A stretch of 24,000 nt of DNA, taken from assembly GCF_000689415.1 (NCBI RefSeq), contig NZ_HG322950.1:1978769-2002768 (forward strand), given 5' to 3'. Under the pieces are notes generated by a model. That model did no database searches, had not been told where the DNA came from, and saw nothing but the letters and a program-made list of their open reading frames with translations. The translations under genes and the position numbers were made by a program. This document shows positions 2,503-23,057 of this stretch, in pieces. Origin of the DNA: Pseudomonas knackmussii B13. GTDB taxonomy: Bacteria > Pseudomonadota > Gammaproteobacteria > Pseudomonadales > Pseudomonadaceae. The stretch's first letter is position 1; every line of letters starts with the position of its first letter.

Positions 2503-3546
<1,044 letters not shown>

Positions 3547-3568
3547 GCCTGAATATCGAAAACGAAAA

Positions 3569-3596
3569 CGCCCGGCATTGCCGGGCGCTTTCATTT
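3569..3596. terminator. bidirectional rho-independent terminator between cysB and the convergent PAP2 gene
   Basis: Stem CGCCCGGC (3569-3576), loop ATT, stem GCCGGGCG (3580-3587), followed by CTTTCATTT. It is preceded by GAAAACGAAAA, which is T-rich on the minus strand. Confidence 0.7.
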
Positions 3597-3602
3597 GGGC
3601 GA

Positions 3603-7697: not shown

Positions 7698-7861
7698 AGG
7701 TGGGGTGAGGGCGCTCCAAGCAGGGGCTGCTGCTTGTCTGAAAAGTCCGATGCTAGAGCCGTTTCCTCGGTTTACGTAGGAAAGGCATTCTGATAAGAAT
7801 TGGATTATCCCGCGGAAGCCATGCTCCGTACCACAACGATAATGAAACAGGGATATAGGCC

Positions 7862-10573
7862 GTGGACGTCGTGTTCAAAACCGCAGCCGGCAGCCTTTCG
7901 CGTCATCAGTCTTCGCTCCCCCAGGTGCCTGCCGATCATCTGTACCTTCCCCAGGTCCAGTCCGCACTGGATCGTTCCAAGCATTTCCGAGTCCTGCTGT
8001 TCTCTGCGCCTGCCGGTTTCGGCAAGAGTGCCGCTTTGGCGTCGCTTGCAGCTCAGCGTGAGGAACGCGGCCACCACGTGGTGTGGATTTCCCTCGAGAG
8101 TGCCGACGACGACCCGGTGCGCTTCTGCACCCGGCTGACCGAGTCGCTCGCCGCCGCCTTGCCCGGCGTCGGCGCCGATGCCCAGAGCTACCTGCAGAAC
8201 ACCCTGCGTGTGCCGGTCGTCGCAGTCATGGAAAGCCTGCTGATGGACCTGGCGCGTTGCGAGCAGCCGGTCCTGCTGGTGCTGGATGACTTCGATCGCA
8301 TTGGCCACGAAGAAATCCTCGGTGGCCTCAACCGCCTGGTGCAGTACGCCCCGCCAGCCTTCACCCTGGCCATCGGCAGCCGTTCGCTGCCGCCGCTCAG
8401 CCTGGCCACCTGGCGCGCCAAGGGTCTGTTGCTGGAAGTCGGCCTCGAAGAGCTGCGCCTGAGCGAAGAACAGACCCGCGACTACTTCCGCCGCAGCGGT
8501 CTTGAACTGGCCGACGAATGCCTGCGCGCGCTGTACACGCAGACCGAGGGTTGGGTGATCGGGGTACACCTGGTGAGCCTGTGGCTGCGTCAGCAACCCA
8601 GCGGCACGCCCCTGAACCTCGAGGCCCTGCGCGGTGACCAGGCGGCGGTCGGTGGTTATCTACTGCGCGCGGTCTTCGAGCGCCTACCCGACGACATCCG
8701 TAGCATCCTGCTGTCTCTGAGCGTGGCCAGTCGCCTGAACGGCGACCTGGCCAATGCCCTGACTGGTCGCCAGGACGGCCAGGCCCTGCTGGAGCGCCTG
8801 GACAGCCTGCAACTCTTCCTCCTGCCGCTGGACCGCGAGCGCCAGTGGTACCGCTTCCACCAGCTGTTCGCCGACTTCCTCCGCGCGCACCTGCGCGATC
8901 GCGAGCCGGAACGCTTCAAGCAGCTGCACTTCAACGCGAGCCTGTGGTTTACCAACCACCACATGCCGACCCTGGCGATCGAACACGCCTGCCTGGCCGA
9001 AGACCCGGAAATGCTAGCCGCGCTGGTCGATGGCTACGGTCTGGAGCTGATCAACCGCGGCCAGCTGTACCTGATCTCGCGCTGGCGCCGGCACGTGCCG
9101 GACGAGATCGCCGCGCGCTATCCGATCCTGGTGCTCAGCGATGTCTGGACCCGCGCCACCGAGCTCAGCCTCGCCGAAGCCAATCGCATGCTCGACGAGC
9201 TGCTGGCGCGCTGGAGCGACGGCAAGCCGCAGTCGCCCATGGGCGACCAATACCTGTCGGCGCTGGCGGTGAAGGCCGTGCTGGCGCTGCAGAAGGACGA
9301 TCTCGAACAGTGCATCGCCCTGGCGCGCCGGGTGGAGAGCCAGCTGGGGCAGAACTCGGCGTTCCTCGAGTGCGCCATCCTGCTGGTCGCCGCCTTCGCC
9401 CAGGTCATGCATGGCCAGGCCGAGCAGGCGCGGCGCCTGATGGGGCTGGCGCAGCAGCGCAATCATTTCCTCGACGGCCGCTACCTGCACATGCAGCTGT
9501 CCACCATCGAGGTGATGCTGGCGCTGGAGCAAGGCCACGTGAAGCAGGCGCAGCTGCTGGTCGATCGCGTCCGCGAGCAGGCGGTGCCGCTGTTCGACCG
9601 GCGCTCCCAGGCCCTGGCCCTGCCGGCGATCACCGAGAGCCTGACGGCCTACTACCGCATGGAGCTCGATGGCCTGGAGGCCCGCCTGCGTTGGGCGTTG
9701 GGGCGGGTCGACGTGATCAACCCCATCGATCTGTACGCCCAGGGCGTGCAGTGCCTGGCGCGCATCCAGCGCCTGCAGGGGCGCAGCAAGGAGGCCCTGG
9801 CGACCCTCGGCCTGATGCAGGCGCTGGCGTCGCGCAACCACTCCTGGCGCATCTTCGCCATGGCGGTGGGGGAGGAGATCAACCTGATTCTCCAGGAGCC
9901 GGCCGCCGACCGCTGCAAGCGCGCCGAGCAGCGCCTCAACGGCATCGATTGGCAGAAGCTCGCTGCTTCGTATCGCCAGGGCCCGTTCAACCCGGTGCTC
10001 TGGGTACGCGGCATCAGCCGGGTGCGCCTGCTGCAGGCGCGCGGCCATTTCAGCGAAGCGCTGCACGAGATCACCCAACTGCGCGCGCTGCTGCAACCCG
10101 GCTGGCACGGTCTGCAGCGCCTGCGCCTGGACCTGCTGGCGGCGCTCAGCTACCAGCGCCTGGGCTACCAGGAGCGCGCCAACAGTCTGCTCGGTCAATG
10201 CCTGATCGGCGCCGAGCGCGAAGGGGTGCGTAGCCTCTTCATCGAGGAGGGCGAGGGCATCCGCCTGCTCCTCCAGCAACTCGAGTCCACCGAACGCCAG
10301 CCGGCGCTGCAGGTCTTCATCCGCGGCCTGTTGTCCGCCTGGCCAGGACAGGAAATACGCAAGGCACAGGACGTGCTCGAGGAAGGGCTGACCGACCGCG
10401 AGCGGGAAGTGGTGTGTCTGGCTGCCCAGGGACTCTCCAACGAGGAGATCGGCCAGAAGCTGTCGCTGGCCCTGGGAACCGTCAAATGGCACCTGCACAA
10501 CATCTACGAGAAGCTCAAGGTGCGTAATCGGACCCAAGCGATCCGCCGTGCCCGCGAGCTGAGCCTGCTCTGA
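7862..10573 (+). CDS. MalT-like LuxR-family transcriptional regulator (N-terminal STAND P-loop NTPase, helical/TPR-like sensor region, C-terminal LuxR/FixJ HTH), copy 1
   Basis: Walker A LLFSAPAGFGKSAAL; Walker B VLLVLDDFDRI; TEGWVIGVHL and WYRFHQLFADFL motifs; C-terminal LTDREREVVCLAAQGLSNEEIGQKLSLALGTVKWHLHNIYEKLKVRNRTQA. GTG start at 7862, with CAGGGA 8 nt upstream. Confidence 0.9.
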   Translation: MDVVFKTAAGSLSRHQSSLPQVPADHLYLPQVQSALDRSKHFRVLLFSAPAGFGKSAALASLAAQREERGHHVVWISLESADDDPVRFCTRLTESLAAALPGVGADAQSYLQNTLRVPVVAVMESLLMDLARCEQPVLLVLDDFDRIGHEEILGGLNRLVQYAPPAFTLAIGSRSLPPLSLATWRAKGLLLEVGLEELRLSEEQTRDYFRRSGLELADECLRALYTQTEGWVIGVHLVSLWLRQQPSGTPLNLEALRGDQAAVGGYLLRAVFERLPDDIRSILLSLSVASRLNGDLANALTGRQDGQALLERLDSLQLFLLPLDRERQWYRFHQLFADFLRAHLRDREPERFKQLHFNASLWFTNHHMPTLAIEHACLAEDPEMLAALVDGYGLELINRGQLYLISRWRRHVPDEIAARYPILVLSDVWTRATELSLAEANRMLDELLARWSDGKPQSPMGDQYLSALAVKAVLALQKDDLEQCIALARRVESQLGQNSAFLECAILLVAAFAQVMHGQAEQARRLMGLAQQRNHFLDGRYLHMQLSTIEVMLALEQGHVKQAQLLVDRVREQAVPLFDRRSQALALPAITESLTAYYRMELDGLEARLRWALGRVDVINPIDLYAQGVQCLARIQRLQGRSKEALATLGLMQALASRNHSWRIFAMAVGEEINLILQEPAADRCKRAEQRLNGIDWQKLAASYRQGPFNPVLWVRGISRVRLLQARGHFSEALHEITQLRALLQPGWHGLQRLRLDLLAALSYQRLGYQERANSLLGQCLIGAEREGVRSLFIEEGEGIRLLLQQLESTERQPALQVFIRGLLSAWPGQEIRKAQDVLEEGLTDREREVVCLAAQGLSNEEIGQKLSLALGTVKWHLHNIYEKLKVRNRTQAIRRARELSLL

Positions 10574-10574
10574 C

Positions 10575-13292
10575 ATGAACATGATGAATTCTCAGCAGCC
10601 CACGCCGCTGCTGCGCACCAAGCTGTTCCCGCCGCACGCGGATGGCGTGGCGCTGTTGCCGCGCCAGGCCTTGATCGACCGCCTGTACGGTGCGCGCAAC
10701 CAGCGCGCGCTGATCCTCAGCGCGCCGGCAGGGTTCGGCAAGAGCACGATCCTCAGCCTGTTTCGCCGGCGCCTGCAGGAGAGCGGGGCGCTGGTAGCCT
10801 GGCTGTCCTGCGACGAAGGCGACAGCGAGCCGCAGCGCTTCCTGCAATATCTGGTGGCGAGCATCCGCAGCGTCGCCGAGGGCTTCGGCGCCAACACCTC
10901 GAACCTGCTGCAGTCGGACATGACGCTGCCGCTGGAGGGGCTGCTCGATGCCTTCCTCGCCGACCTCAAGCGCATCGATGGCCAGCTCTATCTGTTCCTC
11001 GACGACTTCCACCGCATCCGCCATCCGGCGCTCACGCCCGGCGCGCGCTATCTGATCGAGCACCTGCCGGACAACGTCCGCCTGGTTACCAGCACGCGCT
11101 ACCGGCCACGCTTCCTGGTCGACGAACCGGCGCTGTCGCCCTGGGCCTTCTGCCTGAGCGGCGCGGATCTGCGCCTGACCCGCGAAGAAGCCGACACCTA
11201 TCTGCTGGAGCTCAAGGGGCTGTCTCTGGCCGAGTCCGAGCTGGCGCTGCTCTACAAGCGCACCGAAGGCTGGATCACCGCGCTGCACCTGGCCGCCCTG
11301 GCGCTGGCCCGGCACAGCGACCGCGCCGCCTTTCTGCGCGGGCTGTCCGGTACCGAACGGGACATAGCCGACTACCTCGCCGAAGACGTGCTCGCCTCGC
11401 TGCCGGCGCCGCTGCAGCAATTCCTCGACCAGACCTCCGTGCTCGACGAGTTCTGCGCCGAGCTGTGCAACGCCCTGACCGGGCGGCGCGACGGCATGGA
11501 CATGCTCATGCGCCTGCAGAACGAGCAATTGTTCATCATCCCGCTGGACGACCAGCGCGAGTGGTTCCGTTACCACCACCTGTTCGCCGAGTTCCTCCAC
11601 GGGCGCTTGGCGCGCAGCGCCGATCCCACGCCGTTGCTCAATGCCGCGGCGCGCTGGTGCGAGAGCCGCGACATGGCCGATCGCGCGGTGCGCTATGCGC
11701 TGCGTGCGCGTGACTACGCTTTTGCCGCCGACTTGCTGGAGCGCCAGGGCGCGCGGCTGATCGCCGGCAACCGGGTGTACAGCATCCTCGGCATGCTCGG
11801 CAGCATTCCCGCCGAGGTGATCCGCGAGCACCCGGTGTTCCAGATCTTCTATGCCTGGCAGTTGGCCTTCGAGCAGAAGTTCGCCGAGGCCGAGGCCCTC
11901 ATCGAGGAGCTCAGCGCACGGCTGCTGCTGGGGCAGGGCAAGGCGCGCAACTTCGGTCTGGCCGAGTTGCTGGCGGTGGCCCAGGTACTCAAGGCGCTGG
12001 TGCTGCTCTACCAGGACAAGCTGGAGGCGAGCCTCAAGGTCTCGCGCCAGTGGCTGTCGCTGGTGCCTGCGAACCAGCCGGTGTTCCGCGCGAGCCTGGC
12101 GTGCATCCTCGCCGCTGCTCATGCACTGCTGGGCGACTATGCCGAAGCGGCCGGTGCCATCGGCATCGCCCGCGAATGCCTGCGCATGGCGGACAGCGAG
12201 TACCTGCAGGTGGTGGCGAGCATGATCGAGGCGCTGATCTGCAAGGAGAGCGGCGAACTGGAGCGCGGGCGGACCATCGCCGAAAGCGCGCGCAGCCGGG
12301 TCGAGCGGGTGTTCGGCCGGCGCAGTAGGGTAGGTGGGCCGTTGTCGCTGGCCTACGCCGATATCCTCTACGAGCAGGATCGCCACGCCGCGATCCTCGC
12401 CGAACTGCCGCTCGCCACGACCTGGCGCGACGTGGCGACGCCGGTCGAGCTGATCAGCCGCGGCCAGTTGGTGATGGCCAAGGCGCGTTTCTTTGCCGGC
12501 GAGGCCGACCAGGGTCTGGCCCAACTCGACGAATGGCTGGCCGGGCTGCAATCGCCGGGTTACGAGCGGGTCAATGCGCTGGCCATGAGTTGCAAGGTGC
12601 AGCTGTTGCTTTGGCTGCGTCGACCCAACGAGGCCGAGCGCGTTTGCCTTCAACTGGCGCGACAGCTCTCGGGGCTTTCCGCGGAGCGCTTCGCTGACGC
12701 CCACGCCGCGCTGTGCCTGGCCGAGGCGCGCCTGGCGTTGTCCGAGCGGCATGCCGAGAAAGCGCAACAGCGCCTGGAAGCCTGCCTGGCGGCGACGACT
12801 TCGCCCTATCTGCGCGACCGGCGCTTGCGTCTTTCCTTGTTACTTTCTGTTGCGTATTGGCAGAAAGGTAACAGCGAAAAAGCCTTCGCACTCTTCGCGC
12901 CGACTCTCGAAGAGGCCTGGAACCAGGGCTATCGCCGCCTGTTCCAGGACGACGCGCTCTGGCTGCTGCCGTTCTGGGAGGCCTGGCGCGAAGCCGAGCC
13001 CAAGCGCGCCGCCGCCTGGCAAGGGGTGGCCGAGATGCTCCGCGAGCAGTGCCGCCGGCTCTCCGTCGACCCGGAAGGTTTCGAGGAAAATCAGGATGTT
13101 AGCCACCGCGAGCGGGAGATCCTGCGGCTGGTCGCGGCGGGCCTTTCCAATCGCGATATCGCCCAGGCGGTACATCTGTCGGAGGCCACCATCAAGTGGC
13201 ACCTGCACAACCTGTTCGCCAAGTTGGGAGTGCGCAGTCGTACCCAGGCAGTTCTCAAGGGGAAGAGCCTCGGCTTGCTGAGCGAGGCGTGA
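10575..13292 (+). CDS. MalT-like LuxR-family transcriptional regulator, copy 2 (paralogue of the upstream gene)
   Basis: Walker A LILSAPAGFGKSTIL; Walker B LYLFLDDFHRI; TEGWITALHL; WFRYHHLFAEFL; C-terminal VSHREREILRLVAAGLSNRDIAQAVHLSEATIKWHLHNLFAKLGVRSRTQA. The ATG lies 1 nt after the stop of copy 1 (TGA-C-ATG). Confidence 0.9.
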   Translation: MNMMNSQQPTPLLRTKLFPPHADGVALLPRQALIDRLYGARNQRALILSAPAGFGKSTILSLFRRRLQESGALVAWLSCDEGDSEPQRFLQYLVASIRSVAEGFGANTSNLLQSDMTLPLEGLLDAFLADLKRIDGQLYLFLDDFHRIRHPALTPGARYLIEHLPDNVRLVTSTRYRPRFLVDEPALSPWAFCLSGADLRLTREEADTYLLELKGLSLAESELALLYKRTEGWITALHLAALALARHSDRAAFLRGLSGTERDIADYLAEDVLASLPAPLQQFLDQTSVLDEFCAELCNALTGRRDGMDMLMRLQNEQLFIIPLDDQREWFRYHHLFAEFLHGRLARSADPTPLLNAAARWCESRDMADRAVRYALRARDYAFAADLLERQGARLIAGNRVYSILGMLGSIPAEVIREHPVFQIFYAWQLAFEQKFAEAEALIEELSARLLLGQGKARNFGLAELLAVAQVLKALVLLYQDKLEASLKVSRQWLSLVPANQPVFRASLACILAAAHALLGDYAEAAGAIGIARECLRMADSEYLQVVASMIEALICKESGELERGRTIAESARSRVERVFGRRSRVGGPLSLAYADILYEQDRHAAILAELPLATTWRDVATPVELISRGQLVMAKARFFAGEADQGLAQLDEWLAGLQSPGYERVNALAMSCKVQLLLWLRRPNEAERVCLQLARQLSGLSAERFADAHAALCLAEARLALSERHAEKAQQRLEACLAATTSPYLRDRRLRLSLLLSVAYWQKGNSEKAFALFAPTLEEAWNQGYRRLFQDDALWLLPFWEAWREAEPKRAAAWQGVAEMLREQCRRLSVDPEGFEENQDVSHREREILRLVAAGLSNRDIAQAVHLSEATIKWHLHNLFAKLGVRSRTQAVLKGKSLGLLSEA

Positions 13293-13439
13293 AATCACGG
13301 AAGATCCGGCTCCATCCCTTGGATGGGCTGGCAGGTGGGGGTTGGACCAGTAGCTTGAAACCAGGACGCGAAGCCTGAGTGCTTCACGAATCCATGCCCG
13401 CGACACCTAGGGAAGCCGTGGCGGGTCTGGAGGGTCGGC

Positions 13440-13481
13440 TTGGCCGGCCAACCTGCAGCGGGGCAGGACGCCCACTGCAGC
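13440..13481. promoter_or_regulatory. two adjacent palindromic elements in the upstream region of the exported-protein operon (candidate operators)
   Basis: There is a perfect 12-bp palindrome TTGGCCGGCCAA (13440-13451). It is followed by the imperfect inverted repeat CTGCAGCGGG...CCCACTGCAG (13453-13481). Both lie 40-81 bp upstream of ATG 13521. Their function is inferred only. Confidence 0.3.
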
Positions 13482-13520
13482 CCTGGGGCAAACCCACCTG
13501 AACACTGGAGAGACACAACA

Positions 13521-13961
13521 ATGAAAAAAATCCAACAACTGGTTCTTGCAAGTGCTGTTCTGGCCGCTCCGTTCATGGCTCATGCCGACCTGAAATCCAT
13601 GGATGACACCGCGCTGTCCAGCGTGACCGGTCAGGACGGCATCAGCATCGCCGGTACCTTCAACGCCTCTATCGGCGCCGTGACCTACACCGACGCCGAC
13701 ACCAACGGCGGCTCCCTGGTGCTGCAGGGCATCCATCTGCCGAGCGTAACCATCGCCGACAGCGCCCCGATGACCGTAGACGTGGTTACCACCACCATCG
13801 GCAGCACCCCGACCCAGCAGCTGGCTATCGGCCTGCCGACCGTTACCGGCGACGTGACCATCGACGCCATCAAGGTTGGCAGCACTGGCGCCAGCATCGG
13901 CTCGCTGACCGTCTCCAACCTGAACCTGGCCGGTTCCACCGTGAAGATCTGGGGTCACTGA
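13521..13961 (+). CDS. small exported beta-rich protein of unknown function (candidate secreted/fibre subunit)
   Basis: GGAGAG lies 8 nt upstream of the ATG. The Sec signal is MKKIQQLVLASAVLAAPFMAHA|DL. The mature part is Cys-free, rich in T/V/G/S/I/D, and has alternating polar/apolar runs (VTIADSAPMTVDVVTTTIGS, SLTVSNLNLAGSTVKIWGH). The ORF-track start at 13440 is upstream of the RBS and signal peptide and is rejected. Confidence 0.75.
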   Translation: MKKIQQLVLASAVLAAPFMAHADLKSMDDTALSSVTGQDGISIAGTFNASIGAVTYTDADTNGGSLVLQGIHLPSVTIADSAPMTVDVVTTTIGSTPTQQLAIGLPTVTGDVTIDAIKVGSTGASIGSLTVSNLNLAGSTVKIWGH

Positions 13962-13986
13962 TCACGGTGTTCGCGTAGTACCCGAT

Positions 13987-14009
13987 CTCGCCGGCGCCTC
14001 GCCGGCGAG
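13987..14009 (+). other. intra-operon GC-rich stem-loop directly after the small-subunit gene (possible attenuator or mRNA stabiliser)
   Basis: CTCGCCGGCG (13987-13996), loop CCT, CGCCGGCGAG (14000-14009): a perfect 10-bp stem with no following T-tract, located 26 nt after the stop codon. Confidence 0.5.
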
Positions 14010-14038
14010 GTCCATCCAGAATTCAAGGAGTGGGATGG

Positions 14039-14800
14039 ATGTTCGAGATTCTGCTGGGGAGCCTGCTGGGGCTGTTCGGTTTCACCCAGGCGGTGGACAC
14101 CAAGCCGCAACCGCAAGGCACGGTCAATCTCTCGCAGCAACTCACTCCCAACGGCCCCTTGCGTGAGTCGGTGCAGCTCGAGCCGATGAGCCAGGTGCAG
14201 TTCCGCAACGTCATTCGCCAGTCGTACGACTACAGCTGCGGCTCGGCGGCCCTGACCACGCTGCTGGACTACTACCTGGGGCGCAACCTGGAAGAGCGCC
14301 AGGTCATGGAAGGCCTTCTGAAGTACGGCGAGGCGGACAAGATCGTCCAGCGTCGCGGTTTCTCGCTGCTCGACATGAAGCGCTACGCCGCTGCACTGGG
14401 CTACAAGAGCGGCGGTTTCCGTGCCGAATTCTCCGACCTCGACTCGCTGGAAAACCCGGCGCTCGTGCCCATCCACTACGGCGGCTTCAAGCATTTCGTG
14501 GTGGTGCGTGACGTCTACAACGATCACGTTTTCGTTGCCGATCCTGCCCTGGGCAACATCAGTTTCACCCGCAGCCGCTTCGAGGCGATCTGGGACCAGA
14601 ACGTCCTGTTCGTGATCTACCCCGGCGGCCAGGAGCCGAAGAGCGCCCTGGCCCTGAAAGAACAGGACCTGCGCCTGGTGGATGACCGTACCGTGAGCCT
14701 GCTGGCCTTCCGCGATTTTCCGGAGCTGAGCAAGTTCGCCAGCAACCGCGTGACGGAGGCCGCCTCGAAAGGCGACGTGCAGTACATCCGCAACAAGTGA
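14039..14800 (+). CDS. standalone periplasmic C39-family cysteine peptidase (bacteriocin-processing-type papain fold)
   Basis: AAGGAG (14025-14030) lies 8 nt before ATG 14039. The signal-like N-terminus is MFEILLGSLLGLFGFTQA|VD. The catalytic set is present: VIRQSYDYSCGSAALTTLLDYYLG (Gln and Cys; Cys codon 14237-14239) and KHFVVVRDVYNDHVFVADPALG (His/Asp). Confidence 0.85.
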   Translation: MFEILLGSLLGLFGFTQAVDTKPQPQGTVNLSQQLTPNGPLRESVQLEPMSQVQFRNVIRQSYDYSCGSAALTTLLDYYLGRNLEERQVMEGLLKYGEADKIVQRRGFSLLDMKRYAAALGYKSGGFRAEFSDLDSLENPALVPIHYGGFKHFVVVRDVYNDHVFVADPALGNISFTRSRFEAIWDQNVLFVIYPGGQEPKSALALKEQDLRLVDDRTVSLLAFRDFPELSKFASNRVTEAASKGDVQYIRNK

Positions 14801-14846
14801 GCGCTCTTTTCATCGACCCATAAGAACAAGACCAGGGGATAGCATC

Positions 14847-15851
14847 ATGGATTTCAGGGGGTATGCGTGCGCCGCCATACTGGCCTTGCTGGCTGGCGGC
14901 CCTGTGTGGGCCGAGGAGAAATCGGTCGACCAGGCGCGTGATGCACTGTCCAAGAAAGAGGGTGACGCCGACAGCGCCAAGGCGCTGGAGCAGGTGTTCC
15001 AGGCGGCGGAACAAAGCTACACCTTGCTGAAGAAGGGCGAGCGCACGCTCACCTATGGCTTCGACTACTCGATGATGCGCGACACCCGCATCCAGCAGGT
15101 GCGCACTGGCCAGAACGTCTACAGCGTCCTGGCGCAGAGCGAGGCGCAGCACACCTTCACCAACTCGTTCACCTTCGACTACGGCATCTGGGACAACCTG
15201 ACCTTCAGCCTGCGCCTGCCGTTCGTGGCCAAGTACGACACCGAGCGCGACGTGCATGCCTACAGCCTCGGCGACATCTCCACGACGTTGCGCTGGCAGC
15301 CCTGGCCATCGGTACGCGGACGTCCCGTCACCACCTTCTACGCCACCCTCGGCCTCCCCACCGGCGACAGCCCGTACGACATGAATCCGGACAAGGACGT
15401 GTCTACCGGCAGCGGCTACTACAGCCTGGGCGTGGGCGCCAACATGTCCTACGTGATCGACCCGGTCGTGCTCTACGGCTCGCTCGGTTACACCTACAAC
15501 ATGCAGGTCGACAGCATCCATCAGTACCAATACAACGAGGAGCTGCAGAAGGTCACTCCGGGCGACACCCTGAACTTCGCCATGGGCATGGCCTACGCGC
15601 TGTCCTATGACGTATCGCTGGCCACCTCGTACCAGATGGCCTACCAGATGAAGAGCCACTACCACTTCGACGACCGCACGGTGGAGGCTCCGGAACAGAC
15701 CAGCGCAATCATGAACTTCTCGCTCGGCCTGCGAACTTCACCCGACTACATCGTCAACGTGAACGCCGGCTTCGGCATGACCGAGGACTCGCCGGATGTC
15801 CTGCTGGGGGTTTCCCTGCCCCTGGACATCAAGGGCCTGAAACCCGACTAA
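14847..15851 (+). CDS. outer-membrane beta-barrel protein with an N-terminal helical segment (resembles the 'MetA-pathway/transporter' barrel family)
   Basis: Signal MDFRGYACAAILALLAGGPVWA|EE, then a charged helical stretch (KSVDQARDALSKKEGDADSAKALEQVFQAAEQSY). After that come amphipathic Y/G-rich beta-strands (TLTYGFDYS, YSLGDISTTLRW, YGSLGYTYNM, LNFAMGMAYALSYDVSLATSYQMAYQM, VNVNAGFGMT). There is no terminal Phe, so the family assignment is tentative. Confidence 0.6.
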   Translation: MDFRGYACAAILALLAGGPVWAEEKSVDQARDALSKKEGDADSAKALEQVFQAAEQSYTLLKKGERTLTYGFDYSMMRDTRIQQVRTGQNVYSVLAQSEAQHTFTNSFTFDYGIWDNLTFSLRLPFVAKYDTERDVHAYSLGDISTTLRWQPWPSVRGRPVTTFYATLGLPTGDSPYDMNPDKDVSTGSGYYSLGVGANMSYVIDPVVLYGSLGYTYNMQVDSIHQYQYNEELQKVTPGDTLNFAMGMAYALSYDVSLATSYQMAYQMKSHYHFDDRTVEAPEQTSAIMNFSLGLRTSPDYIVNVNAGFGMTEDSPDVLLGVSLPLDIKGLKPD

Positions 15852-15869
15852 CCCGCGAGCGAGACCCAC

Positions 15870-17468
15870 ATGACGAAGCGCATTTCGCCACTCGTGCTGG
15901 CGATGGCTGGGGCGGGGCTTGGCTGGATTCTGCCGGCGCACGCACAACTGGCCAACGACATCACCATCGGCAACCCCAAGGCGATGGCCCTGGGCAACGC
16001 GGTGACTGCCGATTCGACCGGCATCGACGCCGTGCACTACAACCCGGCCGCACTGACCAAACTCAAGGGCCGGCAGACCACGGTGAAGCTGGTGGCCGGC
16101 TTCATGGATATCCGCGCCGGCTTCCATGCGCCGCCAGATTATGGCTCGAGCACCTTCGGCGTGACCGACGACCCGATCGCCAACTCGCACAGCCGCACCA
16201 CCACGCCGACCATGTACCTGCCAGGCCTCGGCGGCATGACCGACGTGCCGGCGCTGGTAGCGCCGCTGGCCGGCATCTCGATCAACCCGCCGGGCTCGAA
16301 ATTCACCTTCGCCACCAACGTCTACACCCCGCAGGCGCTGGGCTATTCGCGCGATTCCGACAGCGATCCGGCACGCTACGATGGCCGTCGTGTATCGCTG
16401 CAGCGGCTGACCTACTTCTCGCCCTCGGTGGGCTACCAGATGAACGACGCCTGGTCGTTCGGCCTGTCGATCGGCTTCTCGCACCAGGCCATGGCGCTGG
16501 ATACCGACTTCCGCAACCCGGGCATCCTCACCGGCCTGCTGGAAACCCTGCACAACACCACCTGCGTGCCGGGGGCGCAGGAAATCGTCGAGCTGGTGTT
16601 CAACGTCTGCGGCGGCAAGATCGGCCCTTACGACAAGCTGGCCAACCTCAAGCTGGACATGCAGCAGACCCTCTCGCCGAGCTACAACCTCGGCGTGCTC
16701 TGGGAGCCCAACGACTGGTTCGGCTGGGGTGCGGTGTACCAGAGCGAGTCGCGCATGAAGCTCAAGGGCAAGTACCGCGTCGACTACACCCAGGACTGGC
16801 AGGGCTTCTGGTCCGGCCTGCAGAGCTCGGTGTTCGGTGCCTTCCTCAGTCCGCTGTTCCCCAACGGCAACGTCGACGAAGAGCACGGCGTAGCCACGCT
16901 GAAGCTGACCAACCCGGACAACTTCTCCACCGGCATCAAGATTCGTCCGTTCGACAACTGGCAGTTCAACGCCGACCTCAAGTGGAGCGGCTACAGCGAC
17001 TGGAACAACATGACCATCGAGTTCGACAAGGAACTCGACCTGCTGCGCATCGCCAAGAACTTTGCGCCCAACGGCGCCACCGACCACAGCATCATTCTCG
17101 ACCGCGGCTACCGCGACACCTGGAGCTACGCCGCCGGCGTACAGTACGACGTGAACGACCGCCTGCAGCTGCGCGCCGGCTACGAGTACCGCCCCTCGGC
17201 GATCCCCAAGAGCAAGGCCGACGCCCTGGTGCCCATCGGCGACGCCAACCTCTACGGCCTCGGCCTGGGCTATCGCTGGGACAAGGACACCACCATCGAC
17301 CTGGGCTTCAACTACTTCGTTTCCAAGCAGAGCATCAAGGCCGGCGAGAGCTGCAACCTGACCTGCACCGGGATCGACAACCTGGTGTACAACCCCTATG
17401 CCGGCATGGATGTGGACACGACGGTGAAGGCCTATATTTTCGCACTGACCTACAACACCACCTTCTGA
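15870..17468 (+). CDS. FadL/OmpP1/TodX-family outer-membrane channel (hydrophobic-compound transporter fold)
   Basis: Signal MTKRISPLVLAMAGAGLGWILPAHA|QL. The hatch-domain signature is GNPKAMALGNAVTADSTGIDAVHYNPAALTKL. The body is long and beta-rich, and the C-terminus is the OMP-type ...YIFALTYNTTF. Confidence 0.85.
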   Translation: MTKRISPLVLAMAGAGLGWILPAHAQLANDITIGNPKAMALGNAVTADSTGIDAVHYNPAALTKLKGRQTTVKLVAGFMDIRAGFHAPPDYGSSTFGVTDDPIANSHSRTTTPTMYLPGLGGMTDVPALVAPLAGISINPPGSKFTFATNVYTPQALGYSRDSDSDPARYDGRRVSLQRLTYFSPSVGYQMNDAWSFGLSIGFSHQAMALDTDFRNPGILTGLLETLHNTTCVPGAQEIVELVFNVCGGKIGPYDKLANLKLDMQQTLSPSYNLGVLWEPNDWFGWGAVYQSESRMKLKGKYRVDYTQDWQGFWSGLQSSVFGAFLSPLFPNGNVDEEHGVATLKLTNPDNFSTGIKIRPFDNWQFNADLKWSGYSDWNNMTIEFDKELDLLRIAKNFAPNGATDHSIILDRGYRDTWSYAAGVQYDVNDRLQLRAGYEYRPSAIPKSKADALVPIGDANLYGLGLGYRWDKDTTIDLGFNYFVSKQSIKAGESCNLTCTGIDNLVYNPYAGMDVDTTVKAYIFALTYNTTF

Positions 17469-17478
17469 GGACGGACAG

Positions 17479-18648
17479 ATGCGTCGCTGCACTCCACTGG
17501 GCATTGTTCTCCTCGGCGTGGCCTTGCTGTCCGCGGGTGCGCAGGCGGGCGCCGGACGCTATCTGTCGTGGATCGACGACAGCGGGCAGGTGCACAACAC
17601 CTTCGTCGACGACGACTTCAATCGCCAACAGCGCCAGGCGGCCAAGCGCATCGACCAAAGCGACCAGGCGCGCCTGCTCGACGACGGCGGCACGCGCTGG
17701 CCGGGGAGCCAGGCGGCGGGGGAGAGCAAGCGGCGTTACTTCACCTGGGTGGACGGCCAGGGCAACCTGCAGAACAGCTTCTACGCGGCCAACCAGGCGC
17801 CTGCCGGTGGCGCCGACTACGTGCTGCCCAATGGCGATCGCTCGTCCGAGTACATCGATGCCGAGGCGTACGAAGACAAGGGCTTCGTTCGCAGCCAGAA
17901 CGGCAATCCGTACTACACCTGGGTCGACGAGCAGGGGCGCATGCACAACTCGCCGATCAGCCCCGAGGAGCGCGCAGCGGGCATTCGCCGCAACGACATC
18001 GCCTTCACCGAAGGTCGGCAGGTCGAGTTCGGCAAGCGTCCGCAGGCATTGCCTGGGCTCGACGGCAGCGGCGAGCAGACCGACGCCATGAAGGCGCTGC
18101 TCAAGGGCAGCGGCAAGACCCTGAACGACCTCTACCAGGACCTGCAGCGGCGCTGCTGCGAGCAGATCGGCGAGGGCGATTTCACCGAACTGAGTGCCGA
18201 TGAGCCGCGCTACGAGGAGCTCAACAAGTTCTCGCCGAGCTTCGATTTCCCGATGGGCAAGAGCTACTACGTGGCCATGAAGCTGCCGGCATCGCAGCAG
18301 GTCTATGGCCTGCGCGTGCGTAGCTTCGCCAACCATCAGGTGGTCTATCCGTCGCTGCTGTTCCTCGACGAACACAAGCGCCCGACCCGCCTGGTCAGCG
18401 ACGCGGTGTACAAGCTCAATCCGGAGACCTGGTACCGCTACGCCTTCATCGAAGGCACGGTGCCGGTGCGCGCCAACGAAGGTGAACGCTACGTACTGCT
18501 GCTGACCACGGACGAGGACCGCAGTCTGCAGACCCTCGACAACAAACCGTACAAGCGGCCGCTGGAAAAACTGGCGGTGAACGATGCCGGCATGAAGGTG
18601 CGCGACCACGGCGACCAGGGCGGTTTCGAGCTGGCGGTGATTCGCTGA
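17479..18648 (+). CDS. exported periplasmic protein: three DUF4124-like Y-x-W-(I/V)-D-x-x-G repeats plus a C-terminal MalM-like domain
   Basis: GAGGA lies 7 nt upstream. Signal MRRCTPLGIVLLGVALLSAGAQA|GA. The repeats are RYLSWIDDSGQVHNTF, RYFTWVDGQGNLQNSF and PYYTWVDEQGRMHNSP. The C-terminal ...FDFPMGKSYYVAMKLPA...VVYPSLLFLDEHKRP...YVLLLTTDED... resembles the maltose-operon periplasmic protein MalM, from memory. Confidence 0.65.
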   Translation: MRRCTPLGIVLLGVALLSAGAQAGAGRYLSWIDDSGQVHNTFVDDDFNRQQRQAAKRIDQSDQARLLDDGGTRWPGSQAAGESKRRYFTWVDGQGNLQNSFYAANQAPAGGADYVLPNGDRSSEYIDAEAYEDKGFVRSQNGNPYYTWVDEQGRMHNSPISPEERAAGIRRNDIAFTEGRQVEFGKRPQALPGLDGSGEQTDAMKALLKGSGKTLNDLYQDLQRRCCEQIGEGDFTELSADEPRYEELNKFSPSFDFPMGKSYYVAMKLPASQQVYGLRVRSFANHQVVYPSLLFLDEHKRPTRLVSDAVYKLNPETWYRYAFIEGTVPVRANEGERYVLLLTTDEDRSLQTLDNKPYKRPLEKLAVNDAGMKVRDHGDQGGFELAVIR

Positions 18649-18663: not shown

Positions 18664-18750
18664 TCCCTGTAGGAGCGGACCTTGTCCGCGATTCGCGCGC
18701 ATGGCGCGCTCCTACAGGTTTTTCGCGGATGAGATCCGCTCCTACGGGCG
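18664..18750. repeat. REP-like palindromic element cluster at the convergent gene junction; the first pair doubles as a terminator hairpin for the + strand operon
   Basis: CCTGTAGGAGCG (18666-18677) pairs with CGCTCCTACAGG (18707-18718) and is followed by TTTTT (18719-23). A third partial copy, TCCGCTCCTAC, sits at 18736-18746. The GTAGGAGCG core is the familiar Pseudomonas REP motif (recalled). Nested small hairpins are GCGGA/TCCGC and GCGCGC/GCGCGC. Confidence 0.6.
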
Positions 18751-18761
18751 GGGCGGCGCCG

Positions 18762-19748
18762 TCAGATCTCCCGCTGCGGCACGTGCCCGAACAGGCTCTG
18801 GGCGAACTTCACGCGCTGCTCCGGCGTTTCCTCAATACCCTTGGCGCGCAGGCTTTCCAGATGCGCCTCCACTGCCTGAGTTCGGCCGACCAGGCCGCAG
18901 TCGTTGGCGATCTGGATGTTCAGGCCGGGGCGTGCGTTGAGCTCGAGGATCAGCGGGCCCTTGTCCTGGTCCAGCACCATGTCCACGCCGATGTAGCCAA
19001 GGCCGCAGAGCTCGTAGCAGCCCGCGGCGAGCTTCATGAAGCCGTCCCAGAACGGCAGCTGCACGCCGTCCACCGCGTTGGCGGTGTCCGGGTGCTTGGC
19101 GATCTTGCGGTTCAGCCAGGTGCCGCGCAGTGTGCTGCCGGTGGCGAGGTCCACACCCACGCCGATGGCGCCCTGGTGCAAGTTGGCCTTGCCGTTGGAC
19201 TGGCGGGTCGGCAGGCGCAGCATGGCCATCACCGGGTAGCCCATGAGGACGATGATGCGGATGTCCGGCACGCCCTCGTAGCTGATGCTCTTGAAGATCG
19301 GGTCGGGGGTGACGCGGTACTCGATCAGTGCGCGGTCACGGTGCCCGCCGAGGGAGTAGAGGCCGGTGAGGATGCTGGACAGCTGGTACTCGATCTCGTC
19401 GCGGCTGATGATCCGCCCGGAGACCGTCTTGTAGTTGCCCTCGAAGCGGTCGGCGATCACCAGGATGCCATCGCCGCCGGCGCCCTGCGCAGGCTTGATC
19501 ACGAAGTCGTTGCGCTCGCCGATGATGCTGTCGAGCTTCTCGATTTCCTTCTCGGTGGAGATGATCCCGTACATCTCCGGCACCTGGATGCCGGCCTCGA
19601 TGGCGCGCTCCTTGGTGATGATCTTGTCGTCGACGATCGGGTACAGATGGCGCTTGTTGTACTTCAGCACGAAGTCCGCGTTGCGCCGGTTGATCCCCAT
19701 GATGCCCTTGGCTTCCAGGGCTTTCCATCGCTTGATCAGGCCGAACAT
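18762..19748 (-). CDS. RimK-related ATP-grasp enzyme (alpha-L-glutamate ligase-like protein)
   Basis: 328 aa: MFGLIKRWKALEAKGIMGINRRNADFVLKYNKRHLYPIVDDKIITKERAIEAGIQVPE...FVIKPAQGAGGDGILVI...GYIGVDMVLDQDKGPLILELNARPGLNIQ. This is the ATP-grasp pattern of the rimK-related glutamate-ligase subgroup. Confidence 0.88.
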   Translation of the reverse strand: MFGLIKRWKALEAKGIMGINRRNADFVLKYNKRHLYPIVDDKIITKERAIEAGIQVPEMYGIISTEKEIEKLDSIIGERNDFVIKPAQGAGGDGILVIADRFEGNYKTVSGRIISRDEIEYQLSSILTGLYSLGGHRDRALIEYRVTPDPIFKSISYEGVPDIRIIVLMGYPVMAMLRLPTRQSNGKANLHQGAIGVGVDLATGSTLRGTWLNRKIAKHPDTANAVDGVQLPFWDGFMKLAAGCYELCGLGYIGVDMVLDQDKGPLILELNARPGLNIQIANDCGLVGRTQAVEAHLESLRAKGIEETPEQRVKFAQSLFGHVPQREI

Positions 19749-19751
19749 GGC

Positions 19752-21278
19752 TCAGTCCTTGAGGAAGGCTTTGAAGCGGAACAGCTCGGTCAGGCGGTAG
19801 CCGCGGTAGCGACCCATCGCGAGCATGAAGGCGACCAGGATCAGCAGCACCGCCGGGAAGGTGAAGACGAAGTACACCAGTTCCGGCACGCGCATCAGGA
19901 TGTGCGCCAAGGTGGCCGCCACCAGGGTGCCGAGGGCCGCCTTCATCGCATGCGCGGCGCCGCGCTCCTCCCAGGTGATCGACAGGCGCTCGATGCTCAT
20001 GGTCAGGATCACCATCGGGAACAGCGCCACCGACAGCCCGCTCTCGAAGCCGAGCTTGTGGCTGAGCAGGCTGATGATCGCGATCATCACCACCACGAAC
20101 GTCAGCACCACCGACAGGCGCGGCAGCATCTGCAGCTTCAGGTGCTCGAGGTACGAGCGCAGCGACAGGCCCAGGGCGGTGATCACGGTGAACAGGCCGA
20201 TGCCCCACTGCAGGCCGGTCTCGCGGAAGGCGAGGGCGATCAGCACAGGGGTGAAGGTGCCCAGGGTCTGGATGCCGATCAGGTTGCGCAGCACCAGGAT
20301 CACCAGCACGCCGAAGGGGATCATGATCATGATCTGGAAGGTCTGCTGGGTCGACAGCGGCAGGCCGTACAGCGAGTACTCGAGGAAGGTCGCGTCGGTG
20401 TTGGCGTCGGAGATCTTCGCCAGGCGGATGGCATTCATCTCGCTGCTGTTGATGCTGAAGCTGACCTGGGCCTTCTTGCCACCGTCCACGCTCAGCAGCG
20501 GCTCGTCGCCCAGCCACCAGATCACCCGGTCGTTGGGCAGGCCGCGCTCGCCGGTCTCGGGGTTGAAGTACAGCCAGTCCTTGCCGTTGTAGCTGCGCAG
20601 CCACAGCTCCGGGGTTTGCTGCTGGTTGGCCAGCAGGCGCAGGGTGTGCACCCGCTCCAGCGGCACGTGGGCGATGCCCAGCAGGGTCTCGACGATGTAG
20701 GCGCGCTTCTCCAGGCTGGTGTCGCCGGCCATCAGCAGCTTGACGTTGTCGTCGGCCTGGTTGTTGGCACGCTTGATGGTCTCGCTGACGAAGGTCTCGA
20801 TGTCGGCCGAATGCTGGCGGATCGGAGCGATCAGCGCTTCGGCTGCGATCTTCTCCGGGCCTTCCAGCGGCGGCGTGTCGCGGAAGATCGGGCCTTTCTC
20901 CTTGGGCTTCTCGCCGCTGAAGCGCTTGGTCAGCACCAGGCGGTAGTAGAGGGTCTGCTTGCCGCTGGCGCGGCGCGAAGACCAGGTCACCTTACGGTTG
21001 CCGTCGGAGCGGTTGATGCTCACGCCGTAGTTGTTCGACACGAAGCTCTCGTTGAGGCTCGTGTAGTCCTGGGTCAGTGGCGGGACGAACATCTGCACCT
21101 TCACCGGCGTCTTGGGCGCGGCTTCGAAGCTGACCCGTGCGTCGATGTTCCAGAGGTCCTCGGTTTCCGCTTCGGTCATGGGAATTCCGAGGACGAAGAT
21201 CTGGTACGCGGTGATCGAGATGCCCAGCAGCACCAGGGTCGCGATCAGGATCTTCAGGTGTAGGTTCAGAGAGCGCAT
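19752..21278 (-). CDS. membrane protein with an N-terminal anchor, a periplasmic inactive-transglutaminase-like domain and a C-terminal 7TM module
   Basis: 508 aa. The N-terminal TM is LKILIATLVLLGISITAYQIFVL, followed by an approximately 270-aa soluble domain and then about seven hydrophobic helices (FQIMIMIPFGVLVILVL ... FTFPAVLLILVAFMLAM). The stop lies 3 nt before the ATP-grasp start. The family name is recalled from comparative-genomics literature. Confidence 0.78.
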   Translation of the reverse strand: MRSLNLHLKILIATLVLLGISITAYQIFVLGIPMTEAETEDLWNIDARVSFEAAPKTPVKVQMFVPPLTQDYTSLNESFVSNNYGVSINRSDGNRKVTWSSRRASGKQTLYYRLVLTKRFSGEKPKEKGPIFRDTPPLEGPEKIAAEALIAPIRQHSADIETFVSETIKRANNQADDNVKLLMAGDTSLEKRAYIVETLLGIAHVPLERVHTLRLLANQQQTPELWLRSYNGKDWLYFNPETGERGLPNDRVIWWLGDEPLLSVDGGKKAQVSFSINSSEMNAIRLAKISDANTDATFLEYSLYGLPLSTQQTFQIMIMIPFGVLVILVLRNLIGIQTLGTFTPVLIALAFRETGLQWGIGLFTVITALGLSLRSYLEHLKLQMLPRLSVVLTFVVVMIAIISLLSHKLGFESGLSVALFPMVILTMSIERLSITWEERGAAHAMKAALGTLVAATLAHILMRVPELVYFVFTFPAVLLILVAFMLAMGRYRGYRLTELFRFKAFLKD

Positions 21279-21284
21279 GGGGCG

Positions 21285-21827
21285 TTACTCGGCAGTTTTC
21301 TTCGCAAGGGGACAGCCGGGCTGGCCGGCGGCGTATTTCAGGCTGGGATCGACCAGCGCACCGAAGCGCTTGAGCGCGTCGGAGCCGATCAGCAGCGGGT
21401 ATTGGAAGGCGCTGCGATCGGTCAAGTTCACTTCGATGGTGCGGCGCACCTTGCCCAGGCAGACCTCCAGTTCGATGACCGGGCGTGCGGTGTAGGCCTT
21501 GTCTTCGTCGGGGTCGAAATCGCCGTGGCGGCGCTTGATCTTGCTGATGCGTGCCAGCGGCCGTTCGATCGGCTCGCGGTCGGCGCTGTCGGTGGCCAGG
21601 TAGAAGCGCACCCAGGTTTCGCCATCGCGCTTGAAGCGCTTGATGTCGCGGGCGCTGAGCGATGCGGTCTTGGCGCCGGTGTCGAGCTTGGCGGCGAGCA
21701 CTTCGTCGAGTTCGCCGATGTGCGCGTATTCGTTGAGGCCGTAGACGGTCTTACCCGCGGCCTGGGCGGTGACGCCGAGGGCGGGGAGCAGGAACAGCAG
21801 CAGAAGGGTGGTGAGTCTGAGTTGCAT
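21285..21827 (-). CDS. exported retropepsin-like aspartic protease (family usually mislabelled 'ATP-dependent zinc protease', RimB-like)
   Basis: Signal MQLRLTTLLLLFLLPALGVTAQA|AG. It has AKLDTGAKTASL (DTGA, nt 21672-21683) and the retropepsin hydrophobic-Gly-x-Asp motif YPLLIGSDALKRF. The stop lies 6 nt before the 7TM gene start. Confidence 0.8.
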   Translation of the reverse strand: MQLRLTTLLLLFLLPALGVTAQAAGKTVYGLNEYAHIGELDEVLAAKLDTGAKTASLSARDIKRFKRDGETWVRFYLATDSADREPIERPLARISKIKRRHGDFDPDEDKAYTARPVIELEVCLGKVRRTIEVNLTDRSAFQYPLLIGSDALKRFGALVDPSLKYAAGQPGCPLAKKTAE

Positions 21828-22023
21828 AGGTTCTGTGCACTGGGAGACCGCGAGGCCTCTGGTACGGGAGCATCCGGCAAACGCCTGGCCCGCATGTGCG
21901 CGCTGATCGTTCGGCCGCGCCGGGAAGACGCCCAGTGGAGAGCGGGCGGCATTCTAGCATGGGGCGTTTCGGCCGCGACAACCGGGCGCTCCTGCCCTGG
22001 GATCAATGTGCGCCAGATAACGG

Positions 22024-22048
22024 AAAAGCCGGCGTTCGGCCGGCTTTT
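22024..22048 (-). terminator. rho-independent terminator downstream of ppsR (symmetrical, A-tract/T-tract flanked)
   Basis: AAAAGCCGGC (22024-33), loop GTTCG, GCCGGCTTTT (22039-48). It lies 27 nt after the ppsR stop codon (TAG, 22075-77 on the minus strand). Confidence 0.75.
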
Positions 22049-22074
22049 CGCGCTGTTTCGCTGCAGTCGAGCGG

Positions 22075-22893
22075 CTATTTTAGACGGCGCTCGACACCCT
22101 TCTCGACGAGAATCTTGGCCGAAATCTCTTCCACCGAAAAATGCGTGGAGTTGATGTAGGCGATGTTCTCGCGGCGGAACAGGTTCTCCACCTCGCGCAC
22201 CTCGAACTCGCACTGGGCGAAGCTTGCGTAGCGGCTGTTGGGCTTGCGCTCGTGGCGAATGGCGGTCAGCCGGTCGGGGTCGATGGTCAGGCCGAACAGC
22301 TTGTGCTTGAAGGGCTTGAGCGCATTGGGCAGCTGCAGGCGCTCCATGTCTTCTTCGGTGAGCGGGTAGTTGGCGGCGCGGATGCCGTACTGCATGGCCA
22401 TGTACAGGCAAGTCGGGGTCTTGCCGCAGCGCGACACGCCGACCAGGATCAGGTCGGCCTTGTCGTAGTAGTGGGTGCGCGCGCCGTCGTCGTTGTCCAG
22501 CGCGAAGTTCACGGCCTCGATGCGCTCCATGTAGTTGGTGTGCTGGCCGATGCTGTGCGACTTTCCGACGGAGTACGAGGAGTCCGCGGATAATTCCTGT
22601 TCCAATGGGGACAAAAAGGTCGAGAAGATGTCGATCATGAAGCCATTGGACTGCGCCAGGATGGCGCGGATCTCGCGGTTCACGATGGTGTCGAAGATGA
22701 TCGGGCGGGCCCCGTCCGCCTCGGCAGCAGCGTTGATTTGCTGTACCATGACGCGCGCTTTTTCTTCAGAGTCGATGTAGGGTCGCGTCAGTTTGAGGAA
22801 GTTGATGTTCTCGAACTGCGCAAGGAGACTTTGGCCGAGGGTTTCGGCAGTGATGCCGGTTCCGTCGGAAATGAAGAACGCCGTACGTTTCAT
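22075..22893 (-). CDS. ppsR: phosphoenolpyruvate synthase regulatory protein (bifunctional PEP synthase kinase/pyrophosphorylase, DUF299)
   Basis: 272 aa: [32 protein letters not shown]... It has the P-loop [19 protein letters not shown] and is divergent from ppsA. Only the 3' 819 nt of the 634-aa ORF-track entry (22075..23979) is real. Confidence 0.92.
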
Positions 22894-23057
22894 TGCGCTA
22901 GTGGCCTTAAGGTAGGAAGGAATCCTAGGTATGATAGGCCGCGCTTTTGCAGGGCCTTTTGCCGGGGGATTGTTACCCATTTTTCCGGCCCAGGCCAGGA
23001 CGCGGCGGAGCCGCGACGGCCGTTTTGAGCTTTTCCAACATTCAGTGGAGAGATCAC

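Follow-up and report, generated by a model that had tools for sequence, protein, structure and literature searches.

The rloABC operon of Pseudomonas knackmussii B13 and a possible cycle of polyglutamate synthesis, export and degradation

Why would genes for a secreted protease, a membrane protein and a cytoplasmic ligase stand almost end to end, and what might their products do together? The question is raised by three minus-strand genes in a 24,000-nucleotide (nt) stretch of Pseudomonas knackmussii B13 DNA (RefSeq assembly GCF_000689415.1, contig NZ_HG322950.1, positions 1,978,769 to 2,002,768), referred to here as the window, whose own numbering is used throughout. A first-pass annotation described them as an operon-like set encoding an exported retropepsin-like protease, a membrane protein with a large extracytoplasmic domain and a seven-transmembrane (7TM) module, and a cytoplasmic ATP-grasp ligase of the RimK clade, and it regarded the system as experimentally uncharacterised. 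That reading was right in outline and is now out of date. The three genes are almost certainly rloABC (retropepsin-like osmotic stress tolerance), orthologous to PA1768-PA1767-PA1766 of P. aeruginosa, an operon named by Lormand et al. (mBio 2025) in work that included structures, an enzymatic activity and phenotypes (PMC12239564). The window thus holds an ordinary rloABC orthologue, of a system that is known and already annotated by NCBI.

The rlo operon of P. aeruginosa affects low-salt survival, beta-lactam tolerance, biofilm formation and cell shape. Its central chemistry, namely the nature of the RloC product and the part that RloB plays in handling it, is a family-wide question already posed in the literature, and the window itself adds no biology beyond one more orthologue. 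What is new here is the breadth over which the gene order is kept (80 of 80 Pseudomonadaceae species genomes and four of four distant ones), a conserved extended -10 element, a set of residues on the predicted cytoplasmic face of RloB, and the finding of no precursor-peptide gene. Together with the conservation of the core from Pseudomonas to Nitrosomonas, these features could guide decisive experiments.

Identity and conservation of the three genes

The listed open reading frames (ORFs) occupy 21285..21827 (rloA, 180 amino acids), 19752..21278 (rloB, 508 amino acids) and 18762..19748 (rloC, 328 amino acids). GC content at the third codon position is 0.82-0.95 in all three frames, in a window and genome of 65% GC, which argues that they are real coding genes. 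As first described, rloA and rloB are separated by 6 nt (21279-21284, reading TAA CGCCCC ATG) and rloB and rloC by 3 nt (19749-19751); an AAGGA Shine-Dalgarno sequence for rloC sits within the 3' end of rloB. Because the spacing is so tight, translational coupling of the three genes is suggested. The gaps and gene order, taken with the conserved putative promoter and the flanking hairpins described below, suggest that the genes form one operon, in agreement with the first-pass annotation.

Assignment to rloABC rests on the NCBIfam cut-offs, on the Pfam architecture, on 86% identity between RloB and the P. aeruginosa protein named RloB in the sources, and on flanking genes like those of P. aeruginosa. 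All three proteins pass their NCBIfam models, and PF05618, PF14400, PF14402 and TIGR02291 were all matched in the profile searches that the first-pass annotation had proposed. For both RloB and RloC, proteins of identical sequence (100%) occur in Pseudomonas sp. QL9 and P. knackmussii B13. In P. aeruginosa, PA14_41710 is rloB and PA14_41730 is rloC, with PA1768-PA1766 as the PAO1 counterpart operon (PMC12239564). The same three families occur there in the same order and on one strand, with the RloA signal peptide, D-T-G motif and polyglutamate-binding residues retained, and with ppsR/ppsA on one side and FadL-like and MalM-like genes on the other. One difference lies in the host, P. knackmussii, whose locus is known here from sequence alone. 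Earlier screens had taken PA1768-PA1767-PA1766 as an operon of unknown function, and the rlo operon recurs in transposon sequencing (Tn-seq) and experimental-evolution screens. Iyer et al. (2009) is cited in the rlo context by two papers (PMC12239564 and PMC12096838).

Conservation was assessed by scanning genomes with a diverse RloB alignment; the best 80 matches, all from Pseudomonadaceae species, were compared, and four distant loci were taken individually. The genes rloA-rloB-rloC are collinear on one strand in all 80 Pseudomonadaceae genomes, with tight gaps in 79, and median identities across these loci are 72.5% for RloA, 79% for RloB and 85% for RloC. The A-B-C core also occurs in each of the four distant genomes: Zooshikella, Nitrosomonas marina, a Burkholderiales metagenome-assembled genome (MAG) and an ENA genome (locus L084). 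In these the core genes overlap by 0-20 nt, in some cases through overlapping stop and start codons. The flanks of the distant loci are mostly unrelated to those of the window, and the two betaproteobacterial loci resemble each other. Co-occurrence across genomes, which the first-pass annotation had proposed to analyse, holds in all 84 loci read, and the arrangement is far beyond chance.

Features of the Rlo proteins

RloA matches PF05618 (E = 3.8e-45) and passes the NCBIfam model NF052262, “retropepsin-like aspartic peptidase RloA”, with 318 bits against a cut-off of 280. Its only hydrophobic segment covers residues 3-23 and ends A-Q-A; residues 1-23 (21759..21827, minus strand), MQLRLTTLLLLFLLPALGVTAQA followed by AGK, form a predicted Sec signal peptide, as judged by hydropathy and motif. 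Cleavage would fall after residue 23, and the crystallised construct of a P. fluorescens orthologue starts at the counterpart of that residue. The PF05618 match and the hydrophobic N-terminus bear out the earlier description of an exported retropepsin-like protease.

What is established about RloA structure, polyglutamate endopeptidase activity, phenotypes and epistasis comes in every case from orthologues rather than from P. knackmussii. Structures have been solved for P. fluorescens RloA (9G58) and for the paralogue PA0462 (9G59) (PMC12239564). An alignment of the P. knackmussii protein with the former (Pfl01_1762) spans 158 residues, about 80% of them identical by eye. The catalytic D-T-G motif is kept, at D49, as are all eight basic residues placed against octaglutamate in the published model: K47, R93, K96, K98, R100, K110, R115 and R138, which correspond, with an offset of +1, to K46, R92, K95, K97, R99, K109, R114 and R137 of P. 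aeruginosa RloA. In vitro, RloA cuts reporters with eight or ten consecutive glutamates and does not cut those with six or fewer (PMC12239564). It also cleaves polyglutamylated RpsF and internal polyglutamate stretches in reporters in vitro, and residues D48, R114 and R137 are required both in vitro and in vivo (PMC12239564).

In the four distant genomes, RloA homologues bear a lipobox or long linkers of low complexity. Those at L081 (Zooshikella, 3047-4000), L083 (the Burkholderiales MAG, 3192-4001) and L084 (3174-4004) are 270-318 amino acids long and carry long linkers rich in Lys, Glu and Pro. Two of these three linker-bearing proteins have a lipobox (LSGC, VSGC), and in such lineages the protease may be tethered to the membrane instead of soluble. 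An extracytoplasmic signature is present in three of the four distant homologues; the called N-terminus of the Nitrosomonas protein shows none, and its start may be mis-called.

RloB combines an inactive transglutaminase domain (PF14400, residues 25-184, E = 4e-49) with a 7TM domain (PF14402, residues 260-505, E = 9e-98), and it passes NF052267, “osmotic stress tolerance membrane protein RloB”, with 1034.5 bits against a cut-off of 900. Clustered at 50% identity, the family falls into about 2,000 groups, nearly all of proteins of about 510 amino acids. Because RloB contains no cysteine, and hence lacks the catalytic Cys of a Cys-His-Asp triad, it cannot be a thiol transglutaminase. Hydropathy, the positive-inside distribution of charges and an AlphaFold2 (AF2) model (predicted local distance difference test, pLDDT, 77) agree on a topology with eight transmembrane (TM) segments: a short basic N-terminus inside, TM1 at residues 10-28, a periplasmic part at approximately residues 30-300 made of a beta-sandwich and a transglutaminase-like domain, a seven-helix bundle at approximately residues 305-490, and a basic cytoplasmic tail. 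This predicted topology and the two Pfam domains agree with the membrane protein as first described. In Foldseek comparisons of the AF2 model with the PDB, the periplasmic domain matched the transglutaminase-like “putative cysteine protease” 3isr (E = 2.5e-8) and the 7TM bundle found no solved structural relative; by sequence, RloB matched no PDB entry.

In alignments reaching down to 30% identity, the invariant RloB positions concentrate in the 7TM half of the protein and include R331, R374, R387, E430, R431, E438, Y491, G493, R495, E498 and R501. The charged residues among them, mostly arginines, are predicted to cluster on the cytoplasmic face, in loops and the C-terminal tail. The C-terminal ends of RloB vary, and a Glu-Glu ending occurs in none of 44 aligned homologues.

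RloC has the PF14397 ATP-grasp domain as its best Pfam match (E = 5.6e-96) and passes TIGR02291, “alpha-L-glutamate ligase-like protein”, with 546 bits against a cut-off of 314. It fails the RimK family model TIGR00768 (50.9 bits against a cut-off of 143.4), with only about 40 residues around the Mg/ATP site aligning, and its matches to the RimK, glutathione synthetase and TTL Pfam models are short and local. By these scores RloC is RimK-related and lies outside the RimK family proper. The ligase described at first therefore holds as a cytoplasmic ATP-grasp enzyme, with no hydrophobic or TM segment found by hydropathy, whereas its placement in the RimK clade does not. The ATP-grasp lysine, glycine-rich loop, K-x-N-x-H-x-G motif and D/E/N metal ligands are all kept, and K85, G89-G94, E143, K187-N189-H191, D256, E269 and N271 are invariant among aligned close homologues; sequence blocks around these motifs recur in the four distant homologues, as read by eye. 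For RloC, AF2 started from a shallow alignment (sequences at least 85% identical) and gave a model with a mean pLDDT of 35, too low for a comparison of ligase folds. Literature searches found no published RloC assay and no later paper that defines the RloC product.

A make-export-degrade model and its alternatives

The genetic evidence on the three proteins came from P. aeruginosa. A triple mutant lacking RloA, RloA2 and RloA3 does not grow in salt-free lysogeny broth (LB), a phenotype partly relieved by sucrose, and the triple loss of rloA1-3 also causes defects in biofilm formation, antibiotic response and cell shape (PMC12239564). In strain PA14, cells with the rloA1-3 triple deletion are fully rescued from death at low salt when rloB or rloC is deleted as well (PMC12239564). 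Loss of the proteases is thus toxic only when RloB and RloC are present, which points to a product that must be degraded. The authors left the activities of RloB and RloC to be determined, and found that the genome encodes no polyglutamate protein destined for the periplasm (PMC12239564). These data agree with the general scheme of the first-pass annotation, in which a product of the ligase is dealt with by the membrane protein and then trimmed in the periplasm by the protease. Its view that the physiological role was unknown is superseded by the osmotic, biofilm, antibiotic and cell-shape phenotypes.

We infer that this product is alpha-polyglutamate and that RloB exports it. In the proposed mechanism, rloABC would be transcribed from its own extended -10 promoter, and cytoplasmic RloC would use ATP to polymerise L-glutamate into alpha-linked oligo- or polyglutamate, either free or on a primer. 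The polyanion would enter RloB by way of the arginine-rich face on the cytoplasmic side and the 7TM bundle, and RloB would carry it over the inner membrane; the periplasmic domain of RloB, transglutaminase-like but catalytically dead, would then hold or present the polyglutamate. Secreted, dimeric RloA, together with its unlinked paralogues RloA2 and RloA3, would cut runs of at least eight glutamates into short pieces, which would then leave the periplasm or be recycled. If cleavage failed, the trapped polyanion would be toxic, chiefly at low ionic strength. The toxicity would presumably be a Donnan-type or osmotic effect; with a trapped polyanion, the rise in Donnan or osmotic pressure of the periplasm should be greatest at low ionic strength, which fits the salt-free phenotype and its partial relief by sucrose. 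Toxicity of the trapped polyanion would also explain the rescue of protease-less cells by removal of RloB or RloC.

This make-export-degrade model is the most economical account because RloA is specific for polyglutamate, no polyglutamate substrate is encoded, and RloC is related to RimK, its nearest characterised relative, which makes poly-alpha-L-glutamate. The extracytoplasmic location of the protease and the arginine-rich cytoplasmic face of RloB are further arguments for it. We regard the mechanism as possible, with slightly less than an even chance of being correct. The statement as a whole, that the genes are rloABC and act by making, exporting and degrading polyglutamate, we hold to be evenly balanced.

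Several points weigh against the model. The RloC product has so far gone undetected, and the amino-acid specificity of the enzyme is unproven, because RloC is only 24% identical to RimK and falls below the RimK cut-off. The Pfam name of its best-matching family, “sugar-transfer associated ATP-grasp”, points to glycan-linked chemistry. Transport by RloB is a guess, because the 7TM module is without a solved structural relative, and the placement of its conserved residues rests on hydropathy and an AF2 model with a pLDDT of 77. Single deletions of rloB and rloC give milder phenotypes of their own (PMC12239564), so the product would not be merely a toxic by-product. The authors also weigh peptidoglycan-related targets (PMC12239564).

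The model has parallels in other systems, which serve as analogies. In Bacillus, the PgsBCA/CapBCA machinery is a membrane-associated, ATP-dependent amide ligase that produces extracytoplasmic polyglutamate, which is then cut by a dedicated extracellular hydrolase, PgdS or CapD. The succession of ligase, polymer and hydrolase would be the same in the rlo model, with unrelated proteins: PgsB is of the Mur-ligase type and forms gamma linkages. We know of no Bacillus-type PgsBCA/CapBCA system in Pseudomonas. Osmoregulated periplasmic glucans, made by OpgGH, are a second example of a periplasmic polymer that is produced at the inner membrane and is important at low osmolarity. They could be a functional analogue of the hypothetical rlo product, with the difference that the polymer is a glucan and not a peptide, and that the proteins are unrelated. 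The polyglutamate that RloA cuts is alpha-linked and genetically encoded (PMC12239564).

A bolder extension is that RloC and RloB together constitute an unrecognised trans-membrane synthase and exporter of poly-alpha-glutamate, with 7TM_transglut representing a new type of translocator for polypeptides and polymer length under the control of the RloA retropepsins; we consider this doubtful. If it were true, Gram-negative bacteria would possess a periplasmic polyanion that can be tuned, the peptide equivalent of osmoregulated periplasmic glucans, and the polymer length set by RloA would set periplasmic Donnan or osmotic pressure. The proposal concerns the whole family and not the window specially, and parts of it are hinted at by Lormand et al. 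(PMC12239564).

A different role for polyglutamate would be as a protein tag. RloC could polyglutamylate one specific protein, RloB or else an exported or membrane protein that RloB delivers, with RloA removing the tag in the periplasm, in an envelope version of the action of RimK and RimB on ribosomal protein S6. In the ribosomal case, RimK lengthens RpsF at its C-terminus and RimB cuts it back; RloA can cut polyglutamylated RpsF as well as internal polyglutamate in reporters in vitro, and proteins polyglutamylated after translation are among the possibilities that the authors name (PMC12239564). However, a cytoplasmic loop or tail of RloB would be out of the reach of a periplasmic protease, which tells directly against the first-pass proposal that a cytoplasmic loop of the 7TM protein might carry the tag, as do the variable RloB C-termini and the lack of a Glu-Glu ending in all 44 aligned homologues. 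The operon encodes no acceptor protein and no conserved small ORF, and a polyglutamylated protein would need to cross the membrane after modification. We consider tagging unlikely.

Alternatively, the system could act on an envelope glycan or peptidoglycan. RloC would ligate an amino acid or short peptide to a sugar- or lipid-linked precursor, RloB would be a flippase or scaffold, and the RloA proteases would act on cell-wall enzymes or on the peptide decoration, which would explain the cell-shape and beta-lactam phenotypes. Consistent with this, the best Pfam match of RloC bears a sugar-transfer name, and the phenotypes touch cell shape, ampicillin sensitivity and the biofilm matrix; the authors speculate on regulation of peptidoglycan synthases or hydrolases, and in V. 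cholerae it is the cell-wall stress system VxrAB that induces the orthologues (PMC12239564). A Shewanella mutant in the rloB-type 7TM/transglutaminase gene over-produces membrane vesicles, and the distant locus L084 has polysaccharide export genes next to rloABC (Wza-like Poly_export and Wzz/GNVR genes at 7195-9530), the sole locus read with adjacent envelope-glycan genes. Against these points, no glycosyltransferase or sugar-nucleotide gene is linked to rloABC in the window or in most loci, and neighbouring genes vary between taxa while the three-gene core stays constant. Moreover, the substrate channel of RloA and its mutagenesis point specifically to polyglutamate (PMC12239564). An envelope-glycan function is, on balance, improbable.

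A second RimK/RimB ribosome-modification system is extremely improbable. The likeness is real, in that both systems pair an ATP-grasp ligase with a PF05618 retropepsin-like, polyglutamate-specific endopeptidase, RimB substrates are cleaved by RloA in vitro (PMC12239564), and weak local matches connect RloC with RimK and RloA with RimB. RimB and RimK, however, are cytoplasmic and act on RpsF, whereas the rlo protease carries a signal peptide and the gene for an 8-TM protein lies between the protease and ligase genes. RloA scores 80.2 bits against a cut-off of 200 for the RimB model NF052261, RloC likewise misses the RimK cut-off and is about 24% identical to RimK (PMC12239564), and deletion of rimB has no effect on rlo phenotypes and shows no genetic interaction with rloA mutants (PMC12239564). 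The cut-offs, the signal peptide, the intercalated membrane protein and the rimB genetics effectively refute this reading. Hardly more credible is a graspetide-like cluster for a ribosomally synthesised and post-translationally modified peptide (RiPP), in which the ATP-grasp enzyme would modify a precursor peptide that is later exported and cleaved: the combination of ATP-grasp enzyme, membrane protein and protease is superficially alike, but the leader is unconserved between species, the intergenic gaps are just 6 and 3 nt, the rlo family is a core, chromosomally conserved operon, and the reading was rejected as no credible small ORF for a precursor peptide was found in the leader or intergenic regions, only artefacts of GC-rich frames.

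Promoter, operon boundaries and neighbouring genes

The proposed promoter of the operon is an extended -10 element, TGCTAGAAT, at 21951..21959 on the minus strand, about 120 nt upstream of the rloA start. It emerged from cross-species alignment and is unchanged across the six species aligned; the pattern TGnTAnAAT lies upstream of rloA in 78 of the 80 Pseudomonadaceae loci, and these account for 78 of all 79 of its occurrences in 752 kb. We infer that the element acts as the rlo promoter. A possible weak -35 element, TTGTCG (21976..21981, minus strand), was read from the sequence at a spacing of 18-19 nt, and a TGTCGC block overlapping it is conserved in the cross-species alignment. A generic sigma-70 consensus scan called neither the -10 nor the -35 element. 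The leader of approximately 117 nt between promoter and rloA is not conserved in the six-species alignment and folds no more stably than shuffled sequence (z = -0.04), on which ground a riboswitch or attenuator was rejected; no Rfam family was matched anywhere in the window.

The transcription unit appears to be delimited on both sides. Directly after ppsR, a perfect 11-bp hairpin followed by a T-run (22023..22049, minus strand) forms the apparent upstream boundary that parts ppsR from the rlo promoter. At the other end, the gap between rloC and the convergent MalM-like gene is filled by three 26-nt palindromic units (CCTGTAGGAGCG...CGCGA, 18666..18748) that resemble repetitive extragenic palindromes (REPs), are inverted repeats of 81-85% complementarity, and stand one in one orientation and two in the opposite. 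The 3' end of the operon probably lies at these units, which may serve as a bidirectional terminator or RNA stabiliser.

Elsewhere in the Pseudomonadaceae, the region upstream of the promoter differs. A perfect palindrome, TTGTCGACAA, lies about 91 nt upstream of the rloA -10 element in 62 of the 80 loci (including L002, L005, L010 and L013), and 62 of its 65 occurrences in the 80 loci are upstream of the rlo promoter. It is found nowhere in the 24-kb window, where the ppsR terminator holds that position. The palindrome may be the operator of a regulator, lost in the P. knackmussii lineage.

The flanking genes resemble those of P. aeruginosa, where PA1769 adjoins the PA1768-PA1766 operon. Downstream of rloC, a string of plus-strand genes at 7862-18648 converges on the operon; it begins with two adjacent MalT/LuxR-type STAND regulators of about 900 amino acids each, after which genes for a DUF6160 protein, a C39-like peptidase, a MetA-pathway-type outer-membrane protein, a FadL/TodX protein and a MalM-like periplasmic protein are closely packed. 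The string has the look of a system that takes up a hydrophobic substrate. On the upstream side of rloA come ppsR (22075-22905), on the same strand, and then ppsA, divergent from ppsR. Among the 80 Pseudomonadaceae loci, ppsR is found within 4 kb upstream of rloA in only three (at L001 the two are about 3 kb apart), so that their adjacency is lineage-specific. Over ppsR and the divergent ppsR-ppsA intergenic region (22001-23000), the GC content falls to 0.59, against about 0.65 elsewhere in the window.

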